IMG/VR virus record: IMGVR_UViG_3300050581_000228 | Source of the DNA: a virus | Taxonomy: Duplodnaviria > Heunggongvirae > Uroviricota > Caudoviricetes | Length of the DNA: 64,000 nucleotides | Reading direction: 5' to 3' (one strand) | Part shown: in pieces, positions 4,210 through 61,906 of the stretch | Numbering within the stretch: the first letter of the stretch is position 1 | Layout of the letters: every line of letters starts with the position of its first letter | The notes under the pieces: model-generated | Told to the model about the DNA's origin: nothing | Database searches by the model: none | What the model saw: only the letters and a program-made list of their open reading frames with translations | Position numbers and translations under genes: made by a program

Positions 4210-4514
4210 GCTGGCTGTCCGTCCCTCCCGTTGACGCAAGGCGTATTGGCATTGCGCAGCGGCACCCCATGCTGCTCGAAACAGGCGACTCCGAGCGTCA
4301 CGACTTTTCGCAGACTCTCCAAGGTCTTCTCGTCGCCGTCCTCGCAGGTTGCCATGCGGAACGCCTGGTCAAGGTAGTGCCCCATGTAGACCAGGAATTC
4401 GCCGACAGTGCGCTTGTGCTCCTGGAAAGTGCCGTTCCATTGGCGTTGCCCCCAGCGGCGGGCTTGGTAGGCACGCTCGCTGGCAATCGCGTCGAAAATC
4501 ATGTCGATGGTCAT
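4206..4514 (-). CDS. hypothetical protein, possibly an all-alpha MazG-like NTP pyrophosphohydrolase
   Basis: 102 aa. ERAYQARRW...VGEFLVYMGHYL...EDGDEKTLESL loosely resembles the MazG EExxE/D pattern. ATGA coupling to the ligase gene stop. Confidence 0.35.
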   Translation of the reverse strand: MTIDMIFDAIASERAYQARRWGQRQWNGTFQEHKRTVGEFLVYMGHYLDQAFRMATCEDGDEKTLESLRKVVTLGVACFEQHGVPLRNANTPCVNGRDGQPA

Positions 4515-5584
4515 TCGTTGTCCTGTGCGCCTTTCCGATCGAGATAGTCCGCGCTCACGCTTTTCAAGATCAGCCGACCGCCGGTAGGAGCGTAGAATTG
4601 CTCAACCTGCGGGGTGATGACGCAGCCTTCTCGATCCTTAAAGCTGCTCTTGATCTTGTCTGAAGTAGCCAGCGTCGTGGGACCGTAGGTGAACTGCCTC
4701 ACGAGGTCTTTGCTGAACGGTCCCTCGTAGAGCACGGGGACCAGTTCGACGCCGAACTGGGCGCAGGCGGCTTTCAACGCCTCCCAGTCGAGATACCTGC
4801 CGTTGACGCTGATGTCGAAAACCCGGTAGCCGTCCTTGTCCTTGACTCCATAGTCGAGGTCTTGAACACACGCCCCGAAGATTTCCCCGAAAACGATCAC
4901 CGAGTTCTTCTCATCGCAGAGATGCGTGAGGAGATTCAAGACGCATTCGTCTTCGAGCGGCTTCCAGTAGATGCACGCCTTGCCTTCTTCCGGTTTCTTC
5001 CGCCTGGTCCGATGGCTCCCGGCCATGAACTCGAATTCGCCGTTCTTGAGGATCAGACCAACCCGGCTGTTCGTGCCGTGAATCTTCTCCGTGATCCGAA
5101 CGATTGTTCCTTCCGCGAAGGCATCGGGATAGCGCCAGATGTTCTCGATTTCTGTGTACTTGTGGAACTGGCTGTCCTCTGGCGCGAGATCGCCGGCAAA
5201 ATACTTGGCCGGCGGCTCGTACTTCTTGGCGGCCCACATCACCGACACGTCGCTCCCCAGGGGATGGGCGCGCAAGAGGTCGGGGGCAGGGATGATGAAA
5301 CCGAAGCTCGGTTCGCCTCGCAGCCGGCAGGCTGCCACCCGACACTGGCACTTGATGCCGTCGAGTTCGGCGTGTTTGAGATACTTCTGGATGCCGAGCG
5401 TTTGGCTGACATCCTGTGGGATCAGAATTCCGGGATGGAAAAAGACAACCCGCTGACCGTGTTGGAACTCGCCCTTGCCGACGATCGTTGTAAGACCCTT
5501 GATGACCGCGATTTCCAGTTTGCTCGCGTTCGGATGGGGCCTGATCTCGTCAATGGCGGTGAGTTCAACGAAAATGTTGGACAT
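4511..5584 (-). CDS. RNA ligase (Rnl2-like nucleotidyltransferase, KIHGTN motif I) with N-terminal tRNA-binding-like OB domain (DraRnl/NgrRnl Rnl5-like architecture)
   Basis: Motif I TEKIHGTN sits at about aa 168. The N-terminal 130 aa (HPNASKLEIAVIKG...GQRVVFF...ACRLRGEPSFGFI) matches the Myf/EMAPII-type tRNA-binding domain pattern. Confidence 0.7.
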   Translation of the reverse strand: MSNIFVELTAIDEIRPHPNASKLEIAVIKGLTTIVGKGEFQHGQRVVFFHPGILIPQDVSQTLGIQKYLKHAELDGIKCQCRVAACRLRGEPSFGFIIPAPDLLRAHPLGSDVSVMWAAKKYEPPAKYFAGDLAPEDSQFHKYTEIENIWRYPDAFAEGTIVRITEKIHGTNSRVGLILKNGEFEFMAGSHRTRRKKPEEGKACIYWKPLEDECVLNLLTHLCDEKNSVIVFGEIFGACVQDLDYGVKDKDGYRVFDISVNGRYLDWEALKAACAQFGVELVPVLYEGPFSKDLVRQFTYGPTTLATSDKIKSSFKDREGCVITPQVEQFYAPTGGRLILKSVSADYLDRKGAQDNE

Positions 5585-10100: not shown

Positions 10101-10172
10101 AAGCCAGCGGCAGGAATCGAACCTGCGCCCCGCTGATTACAAGTCAGCGGCTCTACCATTGAGCTACACTGG
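10101..10172 (-). tRNA. tRNA-Thr (anticodon TGT)
   Basis: Reverse complement folds as GCCAGTG-TA-GCTC/AATGGTA/GAGC-C-GCTGA/CTTGTAA/TCAGC-GGGGC-GCAGG/TTCGATT/CCTGC-CGCTGGC-T, a canonical cloverleaf of 72 nt. Confidence 0.8.
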
Positions 10173-10337
10173 CTCCAGCCCGATCAGACCTGCGCGTCGG
10201 CGCTGGTCGTCTCGGCCTGGTCGCACGTGGCCGCCTCGGCGGCTTCGGTGCTCTGCTGGGCCTCGGGAAGAGCCTGCTCTTCCGGCTGCGGGCCACTCTG
10301 GGTTTCGTCGTGCGTCATTGCGAGCACTCCTGTGGGG

Positions 10338-10511: not shown

Positions 10512-11080
10512 CACAATCTCCCAAATTGCTCGCCGAGATAACTCATCGGGTCACGGCCGTGCAGCGAGTTCCACGGGCGCGGCACAAGAAGCGACGTGCC
10601 TCCCTGTTCTTGGAAAGCAGCGACGTTCTTATCGCTGTCGTCGATGAGCAGAGCGCCGGGCTTTGCGCAGAGATGCTTAGAAGGTCCGATGAGGAACTGC
10701 CTCTGCATCCATTTCGGAGCACACCGCTGAATCCACTCCAGCTTGCCGGCTAGGCAATCGGGGCTAAGCGTCGGACTGGTCAGGAAGTGGACGTTCTGCT
10801 TCCCGACCCTGGCCTCGGCCCAACCGACAATGAAGCCGAACTCCGGCGAGGGTGGCGTGCTAGCCCACAATTCGCGCGTAATCGAGTTCCAGAAGCCGGC
10901 CGGCGTGAAACGGTCATAACCCGCCAAGCGATTCGCGGCACTTACAATGTCCCAGCCGCACTCGACCGGATAGGCGGAATCATCCGGGTAGTGCAGGCCG
11001 AGATGGTCAAATACGTGTTTGTGGAAGACGTTGGAGACGCCATCAATGTCGAGCAAGATAGCTGTGATCTTTTGGCTCAT
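10511..11080 (-). CDS. HAD superfamily 5'-nucleotidase-like phosphatase (paralog of 3691..4209)
   Basis: Start MSQKITAILLDIDGV. LLIDDSDKNV and LLVPRPWNSL match LLIDD and LCPRPWNSL of the first copy. Confidence 0.6.
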   Translation of the reverse strand: MSQKITAILLDIDGVSNVFHKHVFDHLGLHYPDDSAYPVECGWDIVSAANRLAGYDRFTPAGFWNSITRELWASTPPSPEFGFIVGWAEARVGKQNVHFLTSPTLSPDCLAGKLEWIQRCAPKWMQRQFLIGPSKHLCAKPGALLIDDSDKNVAAFQEQGGTSLLVPRPWNSLHGRDPMSYLGEQFGRL

Positions 11081-11750
11081 TTCTGTACTCCGGGCGTCGA
11101 TCCTTGAGACGCTCGAATAGCTTCTTTCGCCGTTTTGTGATGGTCGAATGACTGGACATGCCGACCGCCTTTGCGATCTCGCTATCCGTGTGCTCAGCAC
11201 TCTTCATCTCGACGATCTTCACGTCGATCTCATCGCGGCAAGATGCCCTGATCTCATCCTCAAGCTCGTGGCCGGCGGCAATGTCAACCGTGGATAGCCG
11301 TGAGAAGCAGGATTCCGTAGCCTTTAGCCCAACTGCTCGTGGAGGCGTAATCGGTTTTCCCTGCTGACGTGCCAGCTTTTGGGTTTCGTGCGGCACAACG
11401 ATTGTTGACTCCTCGTCCGCGACCTTTGCCAAATGATTGTCGATGGCGGTGTAGATGTACCCCGTGGGATTGGGTTTCTTCACGCGGCCCTTCTTTTGCA
11501 TCATGTCAACCGCCTCACACAACCCGACCAGACCTGCTGACACGAGGTCGTCACGGAAGAATGTGAAGTGGGGACACTCGCGCAAAAAGGCTTCCACTCG
11601 CACGATGACGAGCGCCATGTTGCCTTGAATCATCTCGTCGCGCGCGGCTTGGTCGCCTTGAACAAGACGCTCGTAGAGTGCGTTGTTCTTTTCACGCGAC
11701 AATGGCTCGCTGTAGCCCGCAGCCCGACTCTGTTCCAGTAAACTCTTCAT
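11043..11750 (-). CDS. sigma-70 family RNA polymerase sigma factor
   Basis: Region 2-like ALYERLVQGDQAARDEMIQGNMALV. Region 4 HTH SEIAKAVGMSSHSTITKRRKKLFERL. Confidence 0.7.
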   Translation of the reverse strand: MKSLLEQSRAAGYSEPLSREKNNALYERLVQGDQAARDEMIQGNMALVIVRVEAFLRECPHFTFFRDDLVSAGLVGLCEAVDMMQKKGRVKKPNPTGYIYTAIDNHLAKVADEESTIVVPHETQKLARQQGKPITPPRAVGLKATESCFSRLSTVDIAAGHELEDEIRASCRDEIDVKIVEMKSAEHTDSEIAKAVGMSSHSTITKRRKKLFERLKDRRPEYRNEPKDHSYLARH

Positions 11751-16690: not shown

Positions 16691-18352
16691 CTAGTTGCGA
16701 ATGAAGTCCGCCATGAGGGCGGGACAGGAGGCGTCGAAGCCTACCAGGTCAAGCATCCCAGCGTCGTTCGGATCAGCGATCGTAAACCCGGTGGCCGTCA
16801 TGCCGACAACGATCAGCTTGGCGTTGATGCCCGTGGCCTGACGGTACTGCATGAGGGCCTGACTGGGATGAATCTGCCCGGCCCAGGTCTCGTTGTCCGT
16901 GTAGACCACGAAGGCGTCCACTTCGAGCCGGTGTTCGAGGGCATAGATCATTGGCAGGGCACAGTCGGTCCCGCCCATCGGAATCTGCTCGATTGCCTGG
17001 ATCACGCCGTTGAGGCCCTGCCTCTTGGAGATGTCCACGGGCACCAGTTCGTGTGAGAAGCCGACCACATGCGTCTGCGGCTCGATCTTGTGAGTCACCA
17101 TCGACATGCAGGCGACGGCCTTGCGGCAGTCCAGATGCGTATTGGCCAGGTACTCCCAGCCCATCGACCCTGACACGTCCAGGGCCAACAGATGCCGCTT
17201 GCCGGTCGGCTCGACGGCATCGAAAGCCGAGTAGAAGGCATCCTCCAATGCAGCCGTGACTTGCTGTACCGGCTGCCATGTGAGGCTGCCTTTGATCCCG
17301 TGCCCTTGCCCGTAAGTGTCGGCTGCAATCAGAACGGACAATGGATGCACACGAGCACCTTTGAGCCGTTCGGTGTTGGTGAGCGTGTCGCACACCAGCT
17401 TCGTCGCTAGCGATAATGGCTTGAGCAGGCCCACGCTGGTCATCTTGCCGAGGTTGCGAATCATGGCCGTGGGCGGCAGATTCGGCAGCAAGGCGTCCCA
17501 GACCGCTGGGCTGCCAAGCAGCGTATTCGGCACGTGTTCCAAGGTCAGGCCGAAGGCTTGGATCAGCCGGACGGCCTCCTTCTCGTCACTGGGACCGAGC
17601 TTGTTGATCTCATTGAAGCCGGTGACGATCCGCAGATCACATGAACACGGCGGAAGCTCGCCCTTGGTAATCCAGTGATACAGGGCGTTGTGGTCGGAAT
17701 CAGTCGCCACCGGATGGCTCAGTCGCAGCACGTCGCGGTGCGTATAGCCAGCCCGGTTGCGGTACTTCGTGACTTGATAGGCCAGCTTGTCAGCAGGTTT
17801 CGTGTTGTACCAGACCGCAACCGCTTCACGTAGACCACGGCCCCAGCCGCGCAGTTCTTTGCAGTTGGCGACGAATTGGAACAAGTGCGTTGAAGTTCGG
17901 CACACGTGCGGGACAAAGCCAAGAGCCATGCGCCGAGCCGAATCGTTGTCCATCTGACTGGCCAAGAGTGCCAAAGCGAAGATCGCGGCGTCATTCTTGG
18001 GAGCACGTCCCGACTCGCTGATGGAAACAATCGTATCGACGGTCTGCGTTGGGTTGGCAGCCGCACACTCGATCACCACGGCGGCATTGTCAGCCGTCAA
18101 CTGGCGCTCGCCCACGTAGTAGGTGCCGCCCTCGCTGCCCAAGATCAAGAACCGCTCTAGTCTGCTCCAGCAATCCAGCGTATGGTTGTAGCCACCAGCA
18201 TTGTTCTGCGCCTGGCGTTTGCCAGGGATCGGCAGGCTCTGCGGGGTGACTCGGGACGACACGTGCTTGGCTAGGGTCTTCATCCAACGATCTCCAAGTG
18301 AAAGAATTGGGCGAGGAACTGCCGTGGGTGTCATCATTGCCAGATAACCCAC
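16691..18352 (-). CDS. rsr: Ro60/Rsr-like protein (TROVE-like helical N-terminal region plus C-terminal vWA domain with MIDAS)
   Basis: 553 aa, GTG start. C-terminal vWA HLLALDVSGSMG...GGTDCALPM (DxSxS...T MIDAS) preceded by about 350 aa of helical repeats. Size and architecture match Ro60 orthologs. Y-RNA-like motifs lie on both sides. Confidence 0.7.
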   Translation of the reverse strand: MGYLAMMTPTAVPRPILSLGDRWMKTLAKHVSSRVTPQSLPIPGKRQAQNNAGGYNHTLDCWSRLERFLILGSEGGTYYVGERQLTADNAAVVIECAAANPTQTVDTIVSISESGRAPKNDAAIFALALLASQMDNDSARRMALGFVPHVCRTSTHLFQFVANCKELRGWGRGLREAVAVWYNTKPADKLAYQVTKYRNRAGYTHRDVLRLSHPVATDSDHNALYHWITKGELPPCSCDLRIVTGFNEINKLGPSDEKEAVRLIQAFGLTLEHVPNTLLGSPAVWDALLPNLPPTAMIRNLGKMTSVGLLKPLSLATKLVCDTLTNTERLKGARVHPLSVLIAADTYGQGHGIKGSLTWQPVQQVTAALEDAFYSAFDAVEPTGKRHLLALDVSGSMGWEYLANTHLDCRKAVACMSMVTHKIEPQTHVVGFSHELVPVDISKRQGLNGVIQAIEQIPMGGTDCALPMIYALEHRLEVDAFVVYTDNETWAGQIHPSQALMQYRQATGINAKLIVVGMTATGFTIADPNDAGMLDLVGFDASCPALMADFIRN

Positions 18353-18442: not shown

Positions 18443-18572
18443 GCACGCCGGTAGGACTCGAACCTACGACCACAGGTTCCCTTTGTGATAACGCTCCCGA
18501 TTCGGCCCATCAGGCAAGAGACTCGAAAGCGATTTCTGATACCTGCGCTCTGACCAACTGAGCTACGGCGTA
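18443..18572 (-). ncRNA. tRNA-like gene 1 with about 56-63 nt intervening module inside the anticodon stem-loop (Y-RNA-like/intron-like)
   Basis: Acceptor TACGCCG/CGGCGTG. D-arm GCTC-AGTTGGTCA-GAGC. Anticodon stem CAGGT...ACCTG enclosing 63 nt. Variable loop TGGTC. T-arm GTAGG-TTCGAGT-CCTAC. The insert contains CGCUUUC...UCUCUUGCC...UGGGCCGAAUCGGGAGCGUUAUC. Confidence 0.5.
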
Positions 18573-19595: not shown

Positions 19596-19670
19596 GGCTG
19601 CATCGCCTGGGGTCGAACCAGGAACCACAGCATTAACAGTGCCGCGCTCTACCATTTGAGCTACGATGCA
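19596..19670 (-). tRNA. tRNA-Asn (anticodon GTT)
   Basis: TGCATCG-TA-GCTC/AAATGGTA/GAGC-G-CGGCA/CTGTTAA/TGCTG-TGGTT-CCTGG/TTCGACC/CCAGG-CGATGCA-G-CC. Confidence 0.8.
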
Positions 19671-20156: not shown

Positions 20157-21470
20157 TCATTTGAGTGGGCCGATGTCCCGGCCGCCGTCGATGATGTAGC
20201 GCTGCGGCCCATTCTTTTCATTCTCGTGCCGCAGCTTCACGTTCAGACGCCACGTCAATCCATGCTTTGGATTGACTCCGTGAAACCACTGGGCCGGCTC
20301 CCGGTAGCCCGACAGGCTGTTGTACGCAAAGGCGTCGGTTCCGAGCCAACTGCCGTTGACCAGGAGTTCGCCATCCACGTCAGACAGAGTGCTTGCCGCA
20401 TGGTGGTGGCCACAGCAGAAGTAGCGGCATCGCTTGGCACCGGCCGCCGCACCCAGGGCGATCAAGCCCTTCTGACGCCGGACCATGCCGTACCACGGGA
20501 TTCCAAGGCTGCTGCGGCAATCGTCGCCATGCGAAACGTTGAAGCCGACACCGTTGATGTTGACGTTCGCCGACCAGGCGTCCGGGATCGTGAAGTAGAC
20601 GTTCTCCAAGCCACGGCAATGCAGCCGGGCGATCTCCCCGACCAGGTAGTCCCAGTTATCATGGGCACCGAGGTAGTCTTTCTTTGGTGTCCGCCGGCCG
20701 TGGTTGCCCGCAAGATACAGGACGTTGACCTGCTCGAAGTGGGCCGCTAGGTCGCGGTACATCAGCGCGTGAAGCTGGCCGATCGCCAGGCAGTTCTTGA
20801 ACTGGTTGCGGTAGTAGCTTCGCTCGCAGGCCCGGTGGATTTCACCGCTCGTGAAGTCCCCGTAAGCCAGCACCCAGAGCACCGGGAAGTGGAACTTGGG
20901 ACTCAGGGTGTTCTGCGTCCATTCCACGACGGTATTGACGTAGCGCTCAGCGCGGGCGCACGAGATCGGAAAGTTGTATTCTTCCAATCCACCGACCTCT
21001 TCTGGCCGCACAACGGCGTCGTGATGACCGTCGCTCATGTGCATCACGCAATGCTCGACGATCTGTGCCTTTGGCCGCAAGACGATCTGTGACGGCAACG
21101 CCCTGAAAGGCTTGATCCGCTGCTCCATCTCGGCGGTGATCGCCCGGAACAGTCCTTGCGTCTTGGCGCTGGCCTTGCTCTTGGCCCGCTCTCGATTTCG
21201 CTCCTCGGTCAGATGGATGACCTCGGCCTCAAGCTCCAAGATGCGCTTGTTCGTCGGATCATGGTCCTCCAACTTCTTTCGCTGTCCGCCGGCTTTCTTC
21301 GGTGCGGGTTCGCCATTCGGCCACGGAACTTCCTTGTAGGCACGCCCTGTGGCAATATCGCTGACCAGGGATCGGCTTACCCTGTGCTTCTTGGCGATCG
21401 CCGCTTGAGTCATCCCATTACTGACGAGATCGGCCTTGATGCGCGCGGCCTTGTCCAGGTTCATCGTCAC
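20157..21470 (-). CDS. metallophosphoesterase with N-terminal HTH domain and coiled-coil linker
   Basis: HTH MTQAAIAKKHRVSRSLVSDIATGR. Metallophosphatase motifs VMHMSDGHHD, GNHG, GHHH. Confidence 0.7.
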   Translation of the reverse strand: MTMNLDKAARIKADLVSNGMTQAAIAKKHRVSRSLVSDIATGRAYKEVPWPNGEPAPKKAGGQRKKLEDHDPTNKRILELEAEVIHLTEERNRERAKSKASAKTQGLFRAITAEMEQRIKPFRALPSQIVLRPKAQIVEHCVMHMSDGHHDAVVRPEEVGGLEEYNFPISCARAERYVNTVVEWTQNTLSPKFHFPVLWVLAYGDFTSGEIHRACERSYYRNQFKNCLAIGQLHALMYRDLAAHFEQVNVLYLAGNHGRRTPKKDYLGAHDNWDYLVGEIARLHCRGLENVYFTIPDAWSANVNINGVGFNVSHGDDCRSSLGIPWYGMVRRQKGLIALGAAAGAKRCRYFCCGHHHAASTLSDVDGELLVNGSWLGTDAFAYNSLSGYREPAQWFHGVNPKHGLTWRLNVKLRHENEKNGPQRYIIDGGRDIGPLK

Positions 21471-25444: not shown

Positions 25445-26326
25445 TCAGCTTGAATTCACGGGCGCATCCAACACCTGCCTTTCTCTACATTGGCGAACTT
25501 TCGCCTCTAGCTCTCGCACGCTGTCTCGATCGAGATGGCAGGCCCAACGCAAGCCCGCATAGAAGCCGTCGAGCGGATTCTGGCACCCCTCGGTTGCGCA
25601 GATCAACGCTCCGACTTGTCTCTTCGCTAGCTCGATCTCGATGTCCTTCATGTGACGAAGATGGCCCTGCGCCCGGAACGGGTCCGAGTAGAAGGCGTCC
25701 ATCTTGCCCTGCTTGACCGCCTCTCTGAATTGCTTGACGCACGCTGCCGCAATGGGCCTGAACTCCCTGGGCGGCGTGATCTTGGCCCGATCCACGTAGT
25801 CCCGTTGCATGGACCGTGGAATCTTGGCCAGCATGTAGGCGTTCTCGATGGGAATCTCGCCCCGATCGACCATCACCTGAATCTCTCTCAGGAGATTGGC
25901 CAGTTCGAGGCACTTCCCGACCCATTTCGGTGACTTGCGGATGAGACAAGCCAACTCGCCTTGGGTCATGCCAGGGTTGCGTAGCAGCAACCTTTTAAGC
26001 TGCTGGGCATATTCGGCCTGCTTCGTCTCCGGCGAGATCGCGTTCGCCTGGAGCATCAGGACCAGAGCCTCGTCATCGCTACACTCCCTGATGATGCAGG
26101 GCAGCGTATCCCGCCCTGCTTCCTTGGCGGCGGCGTAGCGCTGGAGGCCATTGATGATCTCGTAAAGCCCGTCGCCGAAAGGGCGAACAAGGATTGATTG
26201 CAGGACGCCTTTCTCCCGGACGCTCTCGCGCAATTCCAGGTATTCAACGCTGTCCCGATTCACGCCCCGTAGCTTGACCTTCGGCTCCCGCAGGACGTGG
26301 ACCGGCAAGGTCTCCAATCGGTCCAT
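25445..26326 (-). CDS. ParB/Spo0J-like N-terminal domain protein
   Basis: ILVRPFGDGLYEIINGLQRYAAAKEAG matches the ParB N-terminal box. Confidence 0.7.
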   Translation of the reverse strand: MDRLETLPVHVLREPKVKLRGVNRDSVEYLELRESVREKGVLQSILVRPFGDGLYEIINGLQRYAAAKEAGRDTLPCIIRECSDDEALVLMLQANAISPETKQAEYAQQLKRLLLRNPGMTQGELACLIRKSPKWVGKCLELANLLREIQVMVDRGEIPIENAYMLAKIPRSMQRDYVDRAKITPPREFRPIAAACVKQFREAVKQGKMDAFYSDPFRAQGHLRHMKDIEIELAKRQVGALICATEGCQNPLDGFYAGLRWACHLDRDSVRELEAKVRQCRERQVLDAPVNSS

Positions 26327-26356
26327 GCGGGCCTCCGTTGCTTTACTGTCATACCG

Positions 26357-26508
26357 ATACAGTAGGGTAAAAAGACGAAAAATGTGACTGCGACATCGCC
26401 AGCCTCGAAAAAACGTGGAACGAAGGCCGGTTGTAACGCCGCGTCAATTACTGGCCTCTATTGCCATCTGCTTTCGCGGTCACATTTTTCAGGCATTTAC
26501 CCTACTGT
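26357..26508. promoter_or_regulatory. large palindromic element upstream of the primase gene (candidate operator or origin)
   Basis: Arm ATACAGTAGGGTAAAAAGACGAAAAATGTGAC at 26357-26388 faces the inverted arm GTCACATTTTTCAGGCATTTACCCTACTGTA at 26478-26508, with GCCGCGTCAAT between. These are A/T-rich patches in GC-rich DNA. A homologous single-arm module sits at 61486-61561. Confidence 0.4.
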
Positions 26509-26587
26509 AATAGCAGAACAGTTAATTCTCGCCGCTCTGGCAATCCGCGCCCCACTCTGGGGCGTCCTCTATCTAATAGGAGCCACG

Positions 26588-29296
26588 ATGCCCAAGCTCT
26601 CGGAAGCCATCTTCAACTTCATCAACGCTCGCAAGACGACCAACGCCGATCTGGTCGAGCGTTGGCACATTGGCATGGAGACGCAAGTCAACGTCGCAGC
26701 CGATAAGGGCGAACCAGTGGACGGGAAGCGTTCCACTTACACGGATAGTGAATACGAATGGTTTAACGTCAGGGTGCCCAAGAACGCCGCCAGCGAGCCG
26801 GAGTTCCGTGATTACGAACTCAGGTGGCCCCTGGACCTTCACGTCGAAGGCATCGGCATGACCGGCTGGGACTGGCAAGCCCGACAGTCCCGCTGGGTGG
26901 CGTTTGACTTCGACTCATTGACGGCCCATGCCAAGGGCATCGGGGTCAGTAACGAGGAACTCGAACGCATTAAGCGCGCTGCAATGGCTTGGCCTGGTGC
27001 CGAGATTCGCAAGAGCACCGGCGGGGCCGGCATCCATATTTATGTCTTCCTGGATGGCATCCCGACCGAGAACCACACGGTCCACGCCGCGCTGGCCCGC
27101 TGCATCCTTGGCATGATGTCCTCGGAGACCGGCTTCGACTTTGCCAGCCAGATCGACTGCTGCGGCGGCAATATGTGGTTCTGGCATCGAAAGATGACGG
27201 CCGCAAACGAGGGCCTCACGCTCCTCAAGAAGTCAGAGAAAATGCTGACTGAGGCTGACCTGCCGCCCAACTGGCGGGACCACATCGAGGTCATCACCCG
27301 GCGACGGTCCAAGATTCGCGTGCAAATGAATGATGAGTACCTTGATCCCTTCGAGGCCCTCACGTCTGCCCGCCGAATTGTGCCGCTGGACGAAACCCAC
27401 AAGCAGATCATGGACGAACTTGCCCATTCCGGGTTCACCACGATCTGGGTGCCTGACCACCACTTGTGCCAGACACACACTTGTGCTTTGGCAAAGCTGA
27501 TGGAGACGGGCAAGTACCAGGGCATCTACAAGACCAACTCCCAGGGTAAGAACCCCGGTAGCCCGAACTGCTTCATGTTCCCCTTGGATCATGGCGGCTG
27601 GCGGGTTTACCGCTTTTCGCCCGGCGTCAACGAGGCGGAGACCTGGAGCCAGGACCGGGAGGGGTGGACCAACTGCTACTTCAACTGCCGCCCTAACTTG
27701 GCCACCGCCGCCAAGGCGGTAGGTGGCCAAGAAGACCCGGATCATGGCGGGTTCGTGTTCAAGAACTCGGCCGAAGCGAAGAAGGCAGTCGAGGCGATCG
27801 GACAGAAGATCGACTTGCCCGAGAAGTATCTGAATCCGAAATCGAGTCGCCGGGTCAGGCTGAAAGCCCACAAGGACGGCCGGCTGGTAATGCAAATCAG
27901 CAAGAAAGCAGGCGAGAAGGATAAGGGGCTGGAAGGCTGGGTGAGCAAGAACGACAAATGGGTCAAGGTCTTCGACGTGATGGCGGACACGAAACGCGAT
28001 GACCTATCGCACGCCGAGTACGACAACGTAGTTCGCCAATTGGTTACGCCAACGGGTGAAGATGCCGGTTGGCACCTTTTTGCCGAGGACAAGACATGGC
28101 AACGCTTCGGAACGGAGAAAATCAAGTTGCATTTGCACTCGACGGGCCATCCGAAACCCGAAGTCGAATTGATCCTGGGAAGCATGATCGGCAGAGCCTG
28201 GAAGCTGGTCAACGTCCCCTTCCAGCCCGAATATCCAGGCAACCGTCAATGGAATCTCCGCGCGGCACAGTACGCCTACCAGCCTGTAAGCCTTGAGAAC
28301 GACCAGGTGCCACAGCACCTCCATTGGGATCGCGTGCTCAAACACTGTGGTCAGGACTTGGATGCAGCGGTGCGGGAAAGCGAGTGGTGTGGACTTCACA
28401 ACATCAAGTCGGGAGCCGACTACCTGCTGTACTGGATCGCCTTCGTGCTGCGTGATCCGTTCCAAGCTCTGCCCTACCTGTTCCTGTATGGAAACCAGAA
28501 CAGCGGCAAGTCGATCTTGCACCAAGCGTTCGGGTTGCTGATGACCTCGGGAGTGGCCTCGGCCGACCGCGCGCTCAACACCAGTACGGACTTCAACGGC
28601 GAGCTTGCCAATTGCGTGCTCGCGTACATCGAAGAAACCGACCTCTCGGCGCATGGGGGCAGGGCTTACAACCGCATCAAGGATTGGACCACGAATGACG
28701 ACTTCTGGGTGCGGCGGATGCACACCGACGCCTATAAGCAGCGCAATACCCTGCACTTCATCCAGACGGGCAACCGCCTCACCAACGTCTATTTGGAGTC
28801 AGGCGATACGCGGATCGTCGTGATCTATGTGCCGGACTTGCTGCCGGGCGAAGAGGTTGCAAAGAACACGCTGGTTGCCAAGCTGAAGGAAGAGGCTCCG
28901 CATTTCATGCGGACGGTCATGGACCTCACTCTTCCGTCGCCCTTCGGCCGTCTGGGGTTGCCGCCGCTACGGACCAACAACAAGGAGCGGGCAGAAGAAA
29001 TGAACAGCACCGCGATTGAGACTTTCATCAACGAGCAGTGCTTTCAGGTGCCGGGCGAGATGGTCGAGTTCAGCGTCTTTTACAAGCGGTTCCTCGACTG
29101 GTTGCCGGAAGGAACTCGCTACATCTGGAAGAAAGGGGTCGTCGTCGATGAGGTCAAACGGCATTTCCCATTCGGGGGCTACACCGGCAACAAACGAATG
29201 ATCGGCAACTTGTCCTTTGAGGAAAAGACGCCAGCACCGGACGCGAAGCCCTGGATCAGCGTGGACAACAAACTGGTACGGAAGGAAGACGCATGA
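26588..29296 (+). CDS. primase-polymerase / SF3 (D5/P4-alpha-like) helicase fusion
   Basis: Start at MPKLSE preceded by AGGAG. Prim-pol-like GGAGIHIYVFLDG region. C-terminal P-loop GNQNSGKS and downstream helicase motifs. Confidence 0.75.
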   Translation: MPKLSEAIFNFINARKTTNADLVERWHIGMETQVNVAADKGEPVDGKRSTYTDSEYEWFNVRVPKNAASEPEFRDYELRWPLDLHVEGIGMTGWDWQARQSRWVAFDFDSLTAHAKGIGVSNEELERIKRAAMAWPGAEIRKSTGGAGIHIYVFLDGIPTENHTVHAALARCILGMMSSETGFDFASQIDCCGGNMWFWHRKMTAANEGLTLLKKSEKMLTEADLPPNWRDHIEVITRRRSKIRVQMNDEYLDPFEALTSARRIVPLDETHKQIMDELAHSGFTTIWVPDHHLCQTHTCALAKLMETGKYQGIYKTNSQGKNPGSPNCFMFPLDHGGWRVYRFSPGVNEAETWSQDREGWTNCYFNCRPNLATAAKAVGGQEDPDHGGFVFKNSAEAKKAVEAIGQKIDLPEKYLNPKSSRRVRLKAHKDGRLVMQISKKAGEKDKGLEGWVSKNDKWVKVFDVMADTKRDDLSHAEYDNVVRQLVTPTGEDAGWHLFAEDKTWQRFGTEKIKLHLHSTGHPKPEVELILGSMIGRAWKLVNVPFQPEYPGNRQWNLRAAQYAYQPVSLENDQVPQHLHWDRVLKHCGQDLDAAVRESEWCGLHNIKSGADYLLYWIAFVLRDPFQALPYLFLYGNQNSGKSILHQAFGLLMTSGVASADRALNTSTDFNGELANCVLAYIEETDLSAHGGRAYNRIKDWTTNDDFWVRRMHTDAYKQRNTLHFIQTGNRLTNVYLESGDTRIVVIYVPDLLPGEEVAKNTLVAKLKEEAPHFMRTVMDLTLPSPFGRLGLPPLRTNNKERAEEMNSTAIETFINEQCFQVPGEMVEFSVFYKRFLDWLPEGTRYIWKKGVVVDEVKRHFPFGGYTGNKRMIGNLSFEEKTPAPDAKPWISVDNKLVRKEDA

Positions 29297-30606: not shown

Positions 30607-30643
30607 GCGCTCAGGCGTTGACCCGAGCGCCCTTTTTGTTTGC
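30607..30643 (+). terminator. rho-independent terminator
   Basis: GGGCGCTC-aggcgttgaccc-GAGCGCCC followed by TTTTTGTTT. Confidence 0.6.
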
Positions 30644-60917: not shown

Positions 60918-61463
60918 TTACGAAGTGGGCAGTCTCAGAAGTTCGCTGCCCCGCGCGGCCTTGACCGTGGGAAACAGCCGATCTGCGATTCGGTCAATGA
61001 TCTCCTCGGAGCCTTCAATGCCTCGAAGCTCCTCGACCACGATCTCGCATATCGACTGCACGAGGCGATAGACGGCTTCCTTCGGAAGGAGTTCGCCCGT
61101 GTTCTGCTCCAAGGCAAGGCACTCTTTCGTGAGCTTGGCCAGCGTCATCAGCAGATTGTTGACGGACGCGCAGCAGCTAAGCAAGCTGGGATCGTTGTTG
61201 ATCTGCCTCTCGACCATCATGTAGGCCAAATCTCGCGCCTCGCGGAGCGACTTGACCCCATTGTGGCCCGAAAGTTCCGCCAGCCGACGCCGGTTGTTGA
61301 TGTCGGCCAACTGCATGAGCAGCCTGCTCTCAGCCTCTTCCGTACTCTTGCCGCCGTGGGCAAGGCAGAACTCGGAGCCGTACTCGGCTTCCCGCCAACA
61401 CTGTTCGTGGGGATAGCTGAACTTGCAGCGGCGGGGGTCGGCCGGGTCCGTCACGAGTTTCAT
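60918..61463 (-). CDS. hypothetical protein with N-terminal Cys/His cluster
   Basis: Start MKLVTDPADPRRCKFSYPHEQCW...FCLAHGG. Confidence 0.4.
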   Translation of the reverse strand: MKLVTDPADPRRCKFSYPHEQCWREAEYGSEFCLAHGGKSTEEAESRLLMQLADINNRRRLAELSGHNGVKSLREARDLAYMMVERQINNDPSLLSCCASVNNLLMTLAKLTKECLALEQNTGELLPKEAVYRLVQSICEIVVEELRGIEGSEEIIDRIADRLFPTVKAARGSELLRLPTS

Positions 61464-61485
61464 GGAACAATTCCTTTCCGTACCA

Positions 61486-61561
61486 ATACAGTAGGGTAAA
61501 ACCGCGAAAATTGTGACGACAGATTCCGAGAATTCCAAGATTTCTGGATTGCCGCGTCAAT
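61486..61561. promoter_or_regulatory. second copy of the ATACAGTAGGGTAAAA..CGAAAA.TGTGAC...GCCGCGTCAAT module
   Basis: ATACAGTAGGGTAAAACCGCGAAAATTGTGAC at 61486-61517 and GCCGCGTCAAT at 61551-61561, homologous to 26357-26448. Confidence 0.35.
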
Positions 61562-61608
61562 CTGCGCCAAAGACGCCAATCCTCCCGATTCGTCCACAAC
61601 GCGACAAT

Positions 61609-61643
61609 GAAAACCCCTCCCCGCCTGTCGTCTTAAATAGAGA
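61609..61643 (+). promoter_or_regulatory. second copy of the 34 bp promoter-like motif, upstream of the 61667 ORF
   Basis: AAAACCCCTCCCCGCCTGTCGTCTTAAATAGAGA, followed by AAGGAG then ATG at 61667. Confidence 0.4.
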
Positions 61644-61666
61644 CACCTGTTTCAAGGAGATCGTTA

Positions 61667-61906
61667 ATGCGACAGTATGTGATCCTCTACAAGAGGGGGC
61701 CTGGCAAAGACTTCACCCGGCTCAATCCCAAGGACCACGGCAACCTCATCGACCATGAAGAAGTCCGGGATGCCATTGAACTGATGCGTCAGCGGCCGTT
61801 TCTCGAAGGAACCTGCATTCGGCTCAACGACGAGTTGTTCAACATCATGTCGCTCAGCCAGAAAACAATGGACCCAAATGCTTTCCTGTTTACGGAGCCG
61901 GCATGA
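61667..61906 (+). CDS. hypothetical protein
   Basis: 79 aa with a strong RBS (AAGGAG). Confidence 0.45.
   Translation: MRQYVILYKRGPGKDFTRLNPKDHGNLIDHEEVRDAIELMRQRPFLEGTCIRLNDELFNIMSLSQKTMDPNAFLFTEPA

Follow-up and report, generated by a model that had tools for sequence, protein, structure and literature searches.

The inverted repeat upstream of the primase gene of this Planctomycetota (pro)phage is most plausibly a pair of outward-facing, lineage-specific phage promoter modules, possibly with an overlapping operator, a reading to which we assign a probability of roughly 0.6. The 32-nt element that forms each arm is present in exactly three copies in the window, by which we mean the whole 64-kb stretch of DNA that was analyzed: at 26357-26388 (minus strand), 26479-26510 (plus strand) and 61486-61517 (minus strand). 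Every copy faces the leading gene of a long same-strand block, of which there are three. The symmetry of the "palindrome" would most likely arise from two divergent copies of one promoter, and the region is probably a transcription control region, not a replication origin. A large A/T-rich "palindrome" beside a primase gene does not on its own argue for an origin.

The left arm reads ATACAGTAGGGTAAAAAGACGAAAAATGTGAC (26357-26388), and the right arm (26479-26510) is its reverse complement, with 26 of 32 positions matching; a variable patch of 5 nt separates a block of 12 nt from one of 14 nt, both of which match perfectly. The arms are separated by 90 nt, which confirms the earlier note's description of two arms of about 31 nt facing each other across about 90 bp. 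In the repeat search, the inverted repeat could be extended to 52-nt arms with 75% complementarity. The strand folds strongly relative to shuffled sequence (z = -6.2) because of the inverted repeat itself, and Rfam and tRNA scans returned no match in the region itself. The A/T richness that had also been pointed out is present, with a GC content of about 34% in the arms and 52% in the intergenic region against about 59% for the window, but it is only modest and includes no long A/T-rich run.

When the three copies are placed in the same orientation, they share the form GTCACA(T/A)TTTTC, 5 variable nt, and TTTACCCTACTGTA(T/A), the 12-nt and 14-nt blocks being identical across the copies and only the intervening 5 nt varying. 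All three are therefore bipartite in the same way, with GTCACA, a 17-nt spacer that contains the 5-nt variable stretch, and the octamer CTACTGTA. The sequence TACAGTAGGGTAAA has three exact occurrences (26358, 26496 on the minus strand, and 61487) and no fourth site in the window at up to 3 mismatches, and GAAAAATGTGAC is found with each of the three copies. A loose bipartite search of the window yielded nothing above shuffled-sequence noise beyond these copies. The earlier note had suggested searching for every copy of its motifs; this search gives the three arm copies together with exact occurrences of GCCGCGTCAAT at 26438-26448 and 61551-61561. The related module that it had placed at 61486-61561 is borne out, comprising the arm copy at 61486-61517 and the second of these GCCGCGTCAAT sites.

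Module A (26357-26388, minus strand) carries GTCACA at 26383-26388 and, after the 17-nt spacer, CTACTGTA at 26358-26365. It points leftward to a ParB-like gene (25445-26326, minus strand) with ParB_N and HTH_ParB domains, the first gene after the module, whose ATG (26326) lies 30 nt away with GGAGG in between. Module B (26479-26510, plus strand), with GTCACA at 26479-26484 and CTACTGTA at 26502-26509 across the same spacer length, points rightward to the gene for a primase with a D5-type (DUF5906) helicase (26588-29296, plus strand), which is again the first gene after the module and begins with an ATG (26588) at a distance of 77 nt. Module C (61486-61517, minus strand), with GTCACA at 61512-61517, the 17-nt spacer and CTACTGTA at 61487-61494, points leftward to the gene 60918-61463, whose ATG at 61463 is 22 nt away. 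Shine-Dalgarno-like sequences lie between the copies and the start codons. The possibility had been raised that motif copies would bear no relation to gene starts; this is not so, as each copy faces a gene start at 21-78 nt. The third copy had been described as standing ahead of a plus-strand block, but it has the same orientation as the left arm and faces the minus-strand gene 60918-61463, which leads the structural block, instead of the plus-strand block at 61667.

We combined a gene map based on codon bias with family searches (Pfam, PHROGs and NCBIfam). The genes flanking the locus encode the ParB-like protein, a 247-aa protein of unknown function, the primase-helicase, a dNMP kinase and an exonuclease. 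Block 1 runs on the minus strand from 26326 leftward past the window start and is devoted to replication and nucleotide metabolism; its products include two ParB-like proteins, a helicase, an exonuclease, Ro60, DNA polymerase A, a sigma-like protein, DNA ligase, methylases and RNA ligase, and the ribonucleotide reductase and dUTPase of this minus-strand replication block are located beyond the window edge. Block 2, on the plus strand from 26588 to about 30600, contains the primase-helicase, dNMP kinase and exonuclease genes. Directly after its last gene lies a terminator-like hairpin with a T-run (30614-30641, plus strand), which fits a discrete operon starting from module B. Block 3 extends on the minus strand from 61463 to about 30.8 kb, a length of about 31 kb, and carries the packaging, head and tail genes, with products including thioredoxin, the large terminase subunit, a P22-like coat protein, a tape-measure protein and tail proteins, as well as a candidate portal protein without a family match.

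In the mechanism that we propose, each arm would amount to a whole promoter module with a direction, about 40 bp long and consisting of the -35-like GTCACA, the 17-nt spacer with its T-tract, and the octamer CTACTGTA at the -10 position. Modules A and B, placed back to back between the ParB and primase genes, would drive transcription outward, and module C would fire into the packaging and structural block, so that the three copies would head three large transcription units. The generic geometry of the sigma-70 family, two conserved blocks with a spacer of about 16-18 bp, is found in the three copies and in 25 relatives, and the generic placement is found as well, all three copies lying upstream of, and oriented toward, the adjacent gene. 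Transcription start at the modules, and the identity of the protein that reads them, are what we infer from sequence patterns.

A further candidate promoter directed rightward is present at 61608-61639 (plus strand), with TGAAAA, 18 nt and CTTAAATA, 28 nt upstream of the plus-strand gene at 61667. Its sequence agrees with the consensus form of the arms of relatives, and we tentatively regard this single site as a putative fourth promoter. If it is real, both divergent regions share one plan, namely an outward promoter, a box, and an outward promoter.

Arms and architecture in related phages

A comparison with INPHARED revealed no DNA similarity to deposited phages, and at the protein level known phages gave only distant primase matches. 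In the literature, we found no description of this phage family or of promoter consensus sequences of Planctomycetota. Relatives were collected by protein-guided searches, which gave 40 loci in IMG/VR and 38 loci in GTDB genomes, the latter nearly all in Planctomycetota MAGs (Thermoguttaceae, Pirellulales). Several primase loci lie deep inside megabase-sized contigs, for example 1.49 Mb into a 4.2-Mb chromosome, indicating that the phage family is temperate. The divergent pairing of the ParB and primase genes is kept in most relatives. Of 70 relatives, 56 have an inverted repeat with a score of at least 14 in the 450 nt ahead of the primase gene, compared with 35 of 1657 control windows (2%); at a score of at least 19, the counts were 43 of 70 loci and 3 of 1657 controls.

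The sequences of the arms vary by genome, being TTTGGCAGTCTTGTATAGGTGTC in the L128 group and GATTTCCGACACCCTTAGAG in L140, and reaching a length of 46 nt in L188. When the arms of 25 genomes were aligned, an upstream block reading GGGAAA, TGAAAA, GGAACA, TGACCA or GTCACA was followed by 16-18 nt with a T-tract and then by CWTGTATA, CTACTGTA or CAACCTTA. The two arms of one genome share an identity of about 0.8-1.0 in this upstream block and again over some 22 nt that form a downstream block, as against 0.2-0.5 in the 7-9 nt that separate the blocks and past the outer end. From genome to genome the downstream block varies strongly, yet inside one genome it is identical; the two arms therefore co-vary. 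This combination of lineage specificity and co-variation within a genome argues for recognition by a fast-evolving factor encoded by the phage, and the module would then be read by a specificity factor that changes from lineage to lineage.

Each arm holds about 22 contiguous identical nt, which is longer than a sigma factor usually constrains. This length suggests that a further protein binds there or that the arms undergo gene conversion. Recombination between the arms, to which the inverted center described below points, could by itself help to keep them alike.

The position of the arms follows the flanking gene starts and not the other arm: among the relatives, the arms lie a median of 33 nt from the ParB start and 82 nt from the primase start, and the gap from arm to arm ranges from 4 to 299 nt. 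Module C is also kept upstream of the orthologous gene in two relatives, L159 (93% amino acid identity; GTTGAGGAAATCGACGTTTTTAGGCTACTGTATTGG) and L160 (63%; TTCACAATTTTTTCATTTTTAGCCTACTTTGTAGG). In the L128 group and L140, contigs of 63-149 kb contain no exact arm motif besides the pair, and eight relatives showed no extra arm copies at up to 6 mismatches in about 35 kb per genome. The three-operon pattern is documented in this lineage alone. An exact 14-mer scan of IMG/VR gave single chance matches only, and the long bipartite pattern had no match in IMG/VR or in metagenome contigs.

One relative, L203, stands apart in its arrangement. Its module is tandemly repeated three times and is accompanied by convergent copies, which would be odd for simple promoters.

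Proteins that could read the modules

The most likely reader of the modules would be the divergent sigma factor of the phage acting on the core RNA polymerase of the host. The gene (11043-11750, minus strand) encodes a 235-aa, group-3-like protein of the sigma-70 family, which matches phrog_351 (E = 1.5e-8) and region 2 of sigma-F in the PDB (E = 2e-6). In NCBIfam, SigE, SigK, SigG and SigF all fall below the cut-offs, and TIGR02937 spans residues 36-217. A search with a sigma alignment located homologues on the same contigs as the repeat in eight repeat-carrying relatives, and a homologue search with the single protein found nothing. Between the recognition helices of the sigma factors and the -35 blocks, no correlation was visible across nine genomes. 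Module A would drive an operon that includes the sigma gene itself, 15 kb in, and a model with this sigma factor only therefore needs another source of initial sigma expression.

The earlier note had offered, as its alternative, a regulatory site shared by a phage regulator such as the sigma factor or the ParB-like proteins. Its sigma version comes near to the best-supported reading, in view of the promoter geometry, the orientation of the copies toward operons and the presence of the sigma gene. As for the ParB version, binding of ParB to the arms is unlikely because the arms are asymmetric. A parS or ParB (KorB) site is a palindrome of about 13-16 bp, and neither the arms nor the central box described below are palindromic. 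In L125, a perfect 28-nt repeat is retained with no ParB homologue within 6 kb.

Several other established types of promoter or binding site were considered and rejected. Housekeeping sigma-70 promoters were searched for as TTGACA, 16-18 nt and TATAAT, requiring 9 or more of the 12 positions to agree and a -10 hexamer of the form TAnnnT, and no match was obtained in 26200-26700, in 61350-61750 or in any intergenic region of the window. TATAGG cores in relatives prompted us to consider a T7-type promoter, but no gene for a single-subunit RNA polymerase was found; among the large ORFs of the window, beyond which the genome extends, Pfam gave DNA polymerase A, primase, helicase and structural proteins but not RNA_pol (PF00940). 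For sigma-54 and Bacteroidetes-type promoters, the spacing is wrong. A LexA box does not fit either, since CTGT and ACAG are separated by N9 here and by N11-N12 in L152, and copy C has no such dyad.

A repressor or operator over the -10 and start region is also possible. Taken as a full explanation, this alternative states that the arms are operators of a prophage repressor or regulator, with the block of about 22 nt as the lineage-specific binding site, and that its occupation shuts off all three lytic operons together; the promoter itself would then be read by the host RNA polymerase. It overlaps with the promoter reading and differs from it in the specificity factor. The temperate nature of the phage family, with primase homologues in chromosomal contigs of Planctomycetota, is in keeping with such a system, and the long identity from arm to arm together with rapid divergence among genomes resembles repressor/operator immunity pairs. 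One site is present at the heads of three operons, and the conserved block covers the -10-like octamer and beyond. Palindromic sequence also appears at this locus: a local dyad, TACTGT-N9-ACAGT(A/T), lies over the -10 and start region in arms A and B, the core of the L203 module is a 16-bp palindrome (CTCTATACCTATAGAG), and clusters of palindromic ACCGGAAGCGCTTCCGGT sites occupy this place in L132 and L135.

These points are set against the asymmetric, bipartite build of the arms, with their promoter-like spacing of 17 nt and an upstream block that is -35-like throughout the family. Copy C is without the local dyad, and no host-type sigma-70 promoter was found that an operator could overlap. 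Nor was a repressor gene found: the small ORFs at about 61.6-64 kb have no family match in Pfam, PHROGs or NCBIfam, and the sole HTH or repressor-like match is in the N-terminus of the exonuclease encoded at 20157-21470. As a full explanation, we therefore consider the operator reading unlikely, but an overlapping operator of a prophage repressor is a serious partial alternative to reading by the sigma factor.

The central box

Between modules A and B lies a box of about 20 nt, GGTTGTAACGCCGCGTCAAT (26430-26449, plus strand), which contains the GCCGCGTCAAT occurrence at 26438-26448. A second, shorter box, GGATTGCCGCGTCAAT (61546-61561, plus strand), lies between module C and the candidate rightward promoter, and it is conserved in L159 (ATTGACGCG) and L160 (AATGACGCGGC). 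The central box is also found between the arms of L119, L202, L127, L140 and L152, whose arm sequences differ, and with one mismatch in L190, L191 and L201. It is enriched about 24-fold in this region. Compared with its own reverse complement, the box in the ParB/primase region matches at 8 of 14 positions. In the GGAAA clade, to which many relatives belong, the arms are 4-46 nt apart and have no such box between them.

With respect to the primase gene, the box is on the other strand in all eight relatives, in a mirror-image arrangement, indicating that the center has been inverted in this phage, presumably through recombination between the arms. The function of the box seems to be independent of its orientation, and a regulator site and an initiator site are the candidates for what it may be. 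L228, an independent assembly of the same phage, has an identical orientation, and active flipping is therefore not indicated. The conserved but inverted central box is the one feature that the promoter reading leaves unexplained.

The inverted center invites the explanation that the locus is an invertible DNA switch, in which the arms are recombination sites and the 90-bp center flips a promoter or binding site toward the ParB or the primase side. Besides the mirror-image centers of L119, L202, L127, L140, L152, L201, L190 and L191, the general anatomy, inverted repeats of 20-47 nt flanking a short segment, is that of an inverton. We nevertheless regard such a switch as very improbable. No recombinase gene is near the locus, the central box contains no recognizable promoter, and the third copy stands alone with no partner arm. 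The replication functions of the two flanking operons are required jointly, and the independent assembly of the same phage shares its orientation.

The earlier note had proposed a replication origin. In this explanation, the central box would be the initiator site of phage replication, bound by the primase-helicase or another initiator, and the flanking promoters and A/T-rich DNA would aid activation and unwinding, as at the primary origin of T7 or the ori of lambda. The place directly upstream of the primase-helicase gene, kept in about 70 relatives, agrees with it, as do the conservation of the box of about 20 nt despite differing arms, its enrichment of about 24-fold, its seemingly orientation-independent function in the inverted state seen here, and a regional GC content below that of the genome. 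A cumulative GC-skew analysis, which had been suggested as a check, did show a local minimum at 26-27 kb; this minimum is shallow, lies at a switch in gene strand that confounds it, and is not the minimum of the window, to which the calculation refers.

There are no iterons, the only direct repeat being a 10-nt pair at chance level, and no DnaA boxes; TTWTNCACA occurs once in the window (34358), which is not above chance. The box is single and does not form an array. The second module of arm and box heads structural genes, 35 kb from any replication gene, and the arms follow the start codons and not the box; in the boxless GGAAA clade, they are only 4-46 nt apart. We consider an origin at this place quite improbable, and as a description of the region the earlier proposal is not sustained. 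The central box may still have an origin function, for example in initiation activated by transcription from the predicted modules.

A wider reading would make the locus the central switchboard for an extensive and unstudied family of prophages of Planctomycetota. It would combine a conserved center of about 20 bp, an initiator or regulator site that can be flipped when the arms recombine, with two outward promoters of about 40 bp that co-evolve with the sigma factor or regulator of the phage, yielding many naturally orthogonal pairs of promoter and factor, and would possibly couple transcription to the initiation of replication at one site. Taken as a whole, this reading appears distinctly unlikely to us.

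Comparison with known systems

To our knowledge, no phage promoters have been characterized in Planctomycetota, where the control of phage transcription is experimentally unknown and genetic tools are scarce. If the promoter reading is true, the operon structure of this prophage follows from the three modules, and the family provides some 50 natural versions of a single promoter architecture, each of them presumably paired with its own phage factor. The modules would then be usable as orthogonal expression parts.

The middle promoters of SPO1, which depend on gp28, are an example of phage-specific sigma-dependent promoters with their own -35/-10 consensus. Like these, the modules are bipartite with a spacer of about 17 nt, deviate from the host consensus and stand at operon heads, and a sigma factor is encoded in the genome. 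Unlike these, they are present in only three copies, with conservation over about 22 nt downstream and 7-12 nt upstream, and their sequence differs among close relatives. The dependence on sigma is putative here, and the host phylum is Planctomycetota.

The second comparison is with the divergent early promoter/operator pairs of temperate phages, such as PL/OL and PR/OR of lambda and the asymmetric operators of phi105 that flank PM/PR. In both cases, two outward lytic promoters are combined with an inverted arrangement of the same recognition sequence, and the specificity differs among related temperate phages. In contrast to lambda and phi105, the putative promoters of this phage adjoin each other back to back and no repressor gene intervenes, the repeat spans the whole promoter instead of an operator of 14-17 bp, and a third copy is located at the structural genes.

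Two systems bear on replication. The primary origin of T7 comprises the promoters phi1.1A/B and an A/T-rich stretch upstream of the primase-helicase region. The likeness lies in phage-specific promoters next to replication genes, from which transcription could activate the box if it is an initiator site; the differences are that no gene for a single-subunit RNA polymerase was found in the window, that the promoters are divergent and not tandem, and that there is no extended A/T-rich unwinding stretch. In phage P4, the alpha primase-helicase binds at two clusters of sites that lie apart, ori and crr, each with multiple octamer repeats. Here too, a primase-helicase of the D5/P4-alpha type is a candidate initiator and two homologous modules lie far apart, but each module has one box, and the long repeats are oriented toward gene starts.

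Of these systems, the arrangement in this phage would work like known sets of phage-specific promoters and like divergent early promoter/operator pairs.

Orientation of the central box and the local dyad of the arms

We compared the orientation of the central box GGTTGTAACGCCGCGTCAAT, the conserved element of about 20 nt lying between the outward-facing promoter-like arms A (26357-26388, minus strand) and B (26479-26510, plus strand), with its copies in L119 (5880-5899), L202, L127, L140, L152, L201, L190 and L191. The box of the window (26430-26449) was found in mirror image, inverted relative to the copies of the nearest relatives, and its orientation was identical in an independent assembly. 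Because of this inversion, the sequence comparison implies that the inverted arms would have recombined with each other at some point.

A counterpart to part of the box was found in the GGAAA clade, the relatives whose arms are only 4-46 nt apart and enclose no central box. In eight of their loci (L124, L126, L128, L129, L131, L134, L195 and L212), TGACGCGGATGCACCGATGCC is conserved in the presumed 5' leader of the ParB gene, beyond the ParB-side arm by about 8 nt; part of it, TGACGCGG, also occurs in the window clade's central box.

Arms A and B also carry a local dyad, TACTGT-N9-ACAGT(A/T), at 26344-26364 and 26503-26523, respectively, which extends over the -10-like octamer as well as the probable start region. 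This dyad is absent from copy C, the third module at 61486-61517 (minus strand), and in the relative L152 the CTGT and ACAG halves are separated by N11-N12. A LexA box was considered for the dyad of arms A and B and rejected: the sequence is similar and the spacing is wrong.

Unusual layouts upstream of the primase gene in relatives

Three further layouts were observed upstream of the primase gene. In a Lacipirellula MAG (L203, 5400-5910), the entire divergent module occurs in three tandem repeats with a period of about 200 nt. The arms have the pattern GTGCATTTT..GGCAGAAAGGACCTCTATACCTATAGAG, and each has a 16-bp palindrome as its core. The tandem repetition generates convergent arm pairs that flank segments of about 100 nt. 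In L132 (1830-2040) and L135, whose primase identity is 48%, at least seven copies of ACCGGAAGCGC in both orientations stand where the large inverted repeat would be, and some of them make perfect 18-bp palindromes; these sites look like operators or iterons. L123 contains a perfect 47-nt inverted repeat with a 14-nt gap (735-842), which stops 10 nt short of the start codon of the primase gene, close to the end of a contig. This repeat could be an extreme form of the same inverted-arm architecture or an assembly artefact.

Genome extent and the 61.5-kb divergent region

The long plus-strand ORFs 23-358 and 362-1498, at the window's left edge (1-1500), are probably spurious. In the near-identical Logan contig L226, minus-strand genes for ribonucleotide reductase, dCMP deaminase and dUTPase continue across this edge. 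The replication block is therefore longer than 28 kb, and the phage genome extends beyond the window. An independent short-read assembly (L227, Logan SRR17288838_41495) breaks at about window position 61639, within the 61.5-kb divergent intergenic region and 176 nt upstream of gene 60918-61463, which could be caused by the repeat or by a genome end.

Repressor-like domain, Ro60 gene and RNA genes

The exonuclease (phrog_284; 20157-21470, minus strand) carries at its N-terminus a domain of roughly 45 aa similar to HTH repressors (phrog_6223, 6831 and 1468), the only repressor-like DNA-binding domain noticed within the window.

The replication block also encodes a phage Ro60/TROVE and vWA protein (16691-18352, minus strand), together with an RNA ligase (4511-5584), tRNA-Thr (10101-10174) and tRNA-Asn (19596-19670). 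Directly upstream of the Ro60 gene, the Rfam tRNA model gave a score of 47 bits to a 130-nt stretch (18443-18572, minus strand) in which ARAGORN called no tRNA. This stretch resembles a YrlA-type Y RNA that has a tRNA-like module.
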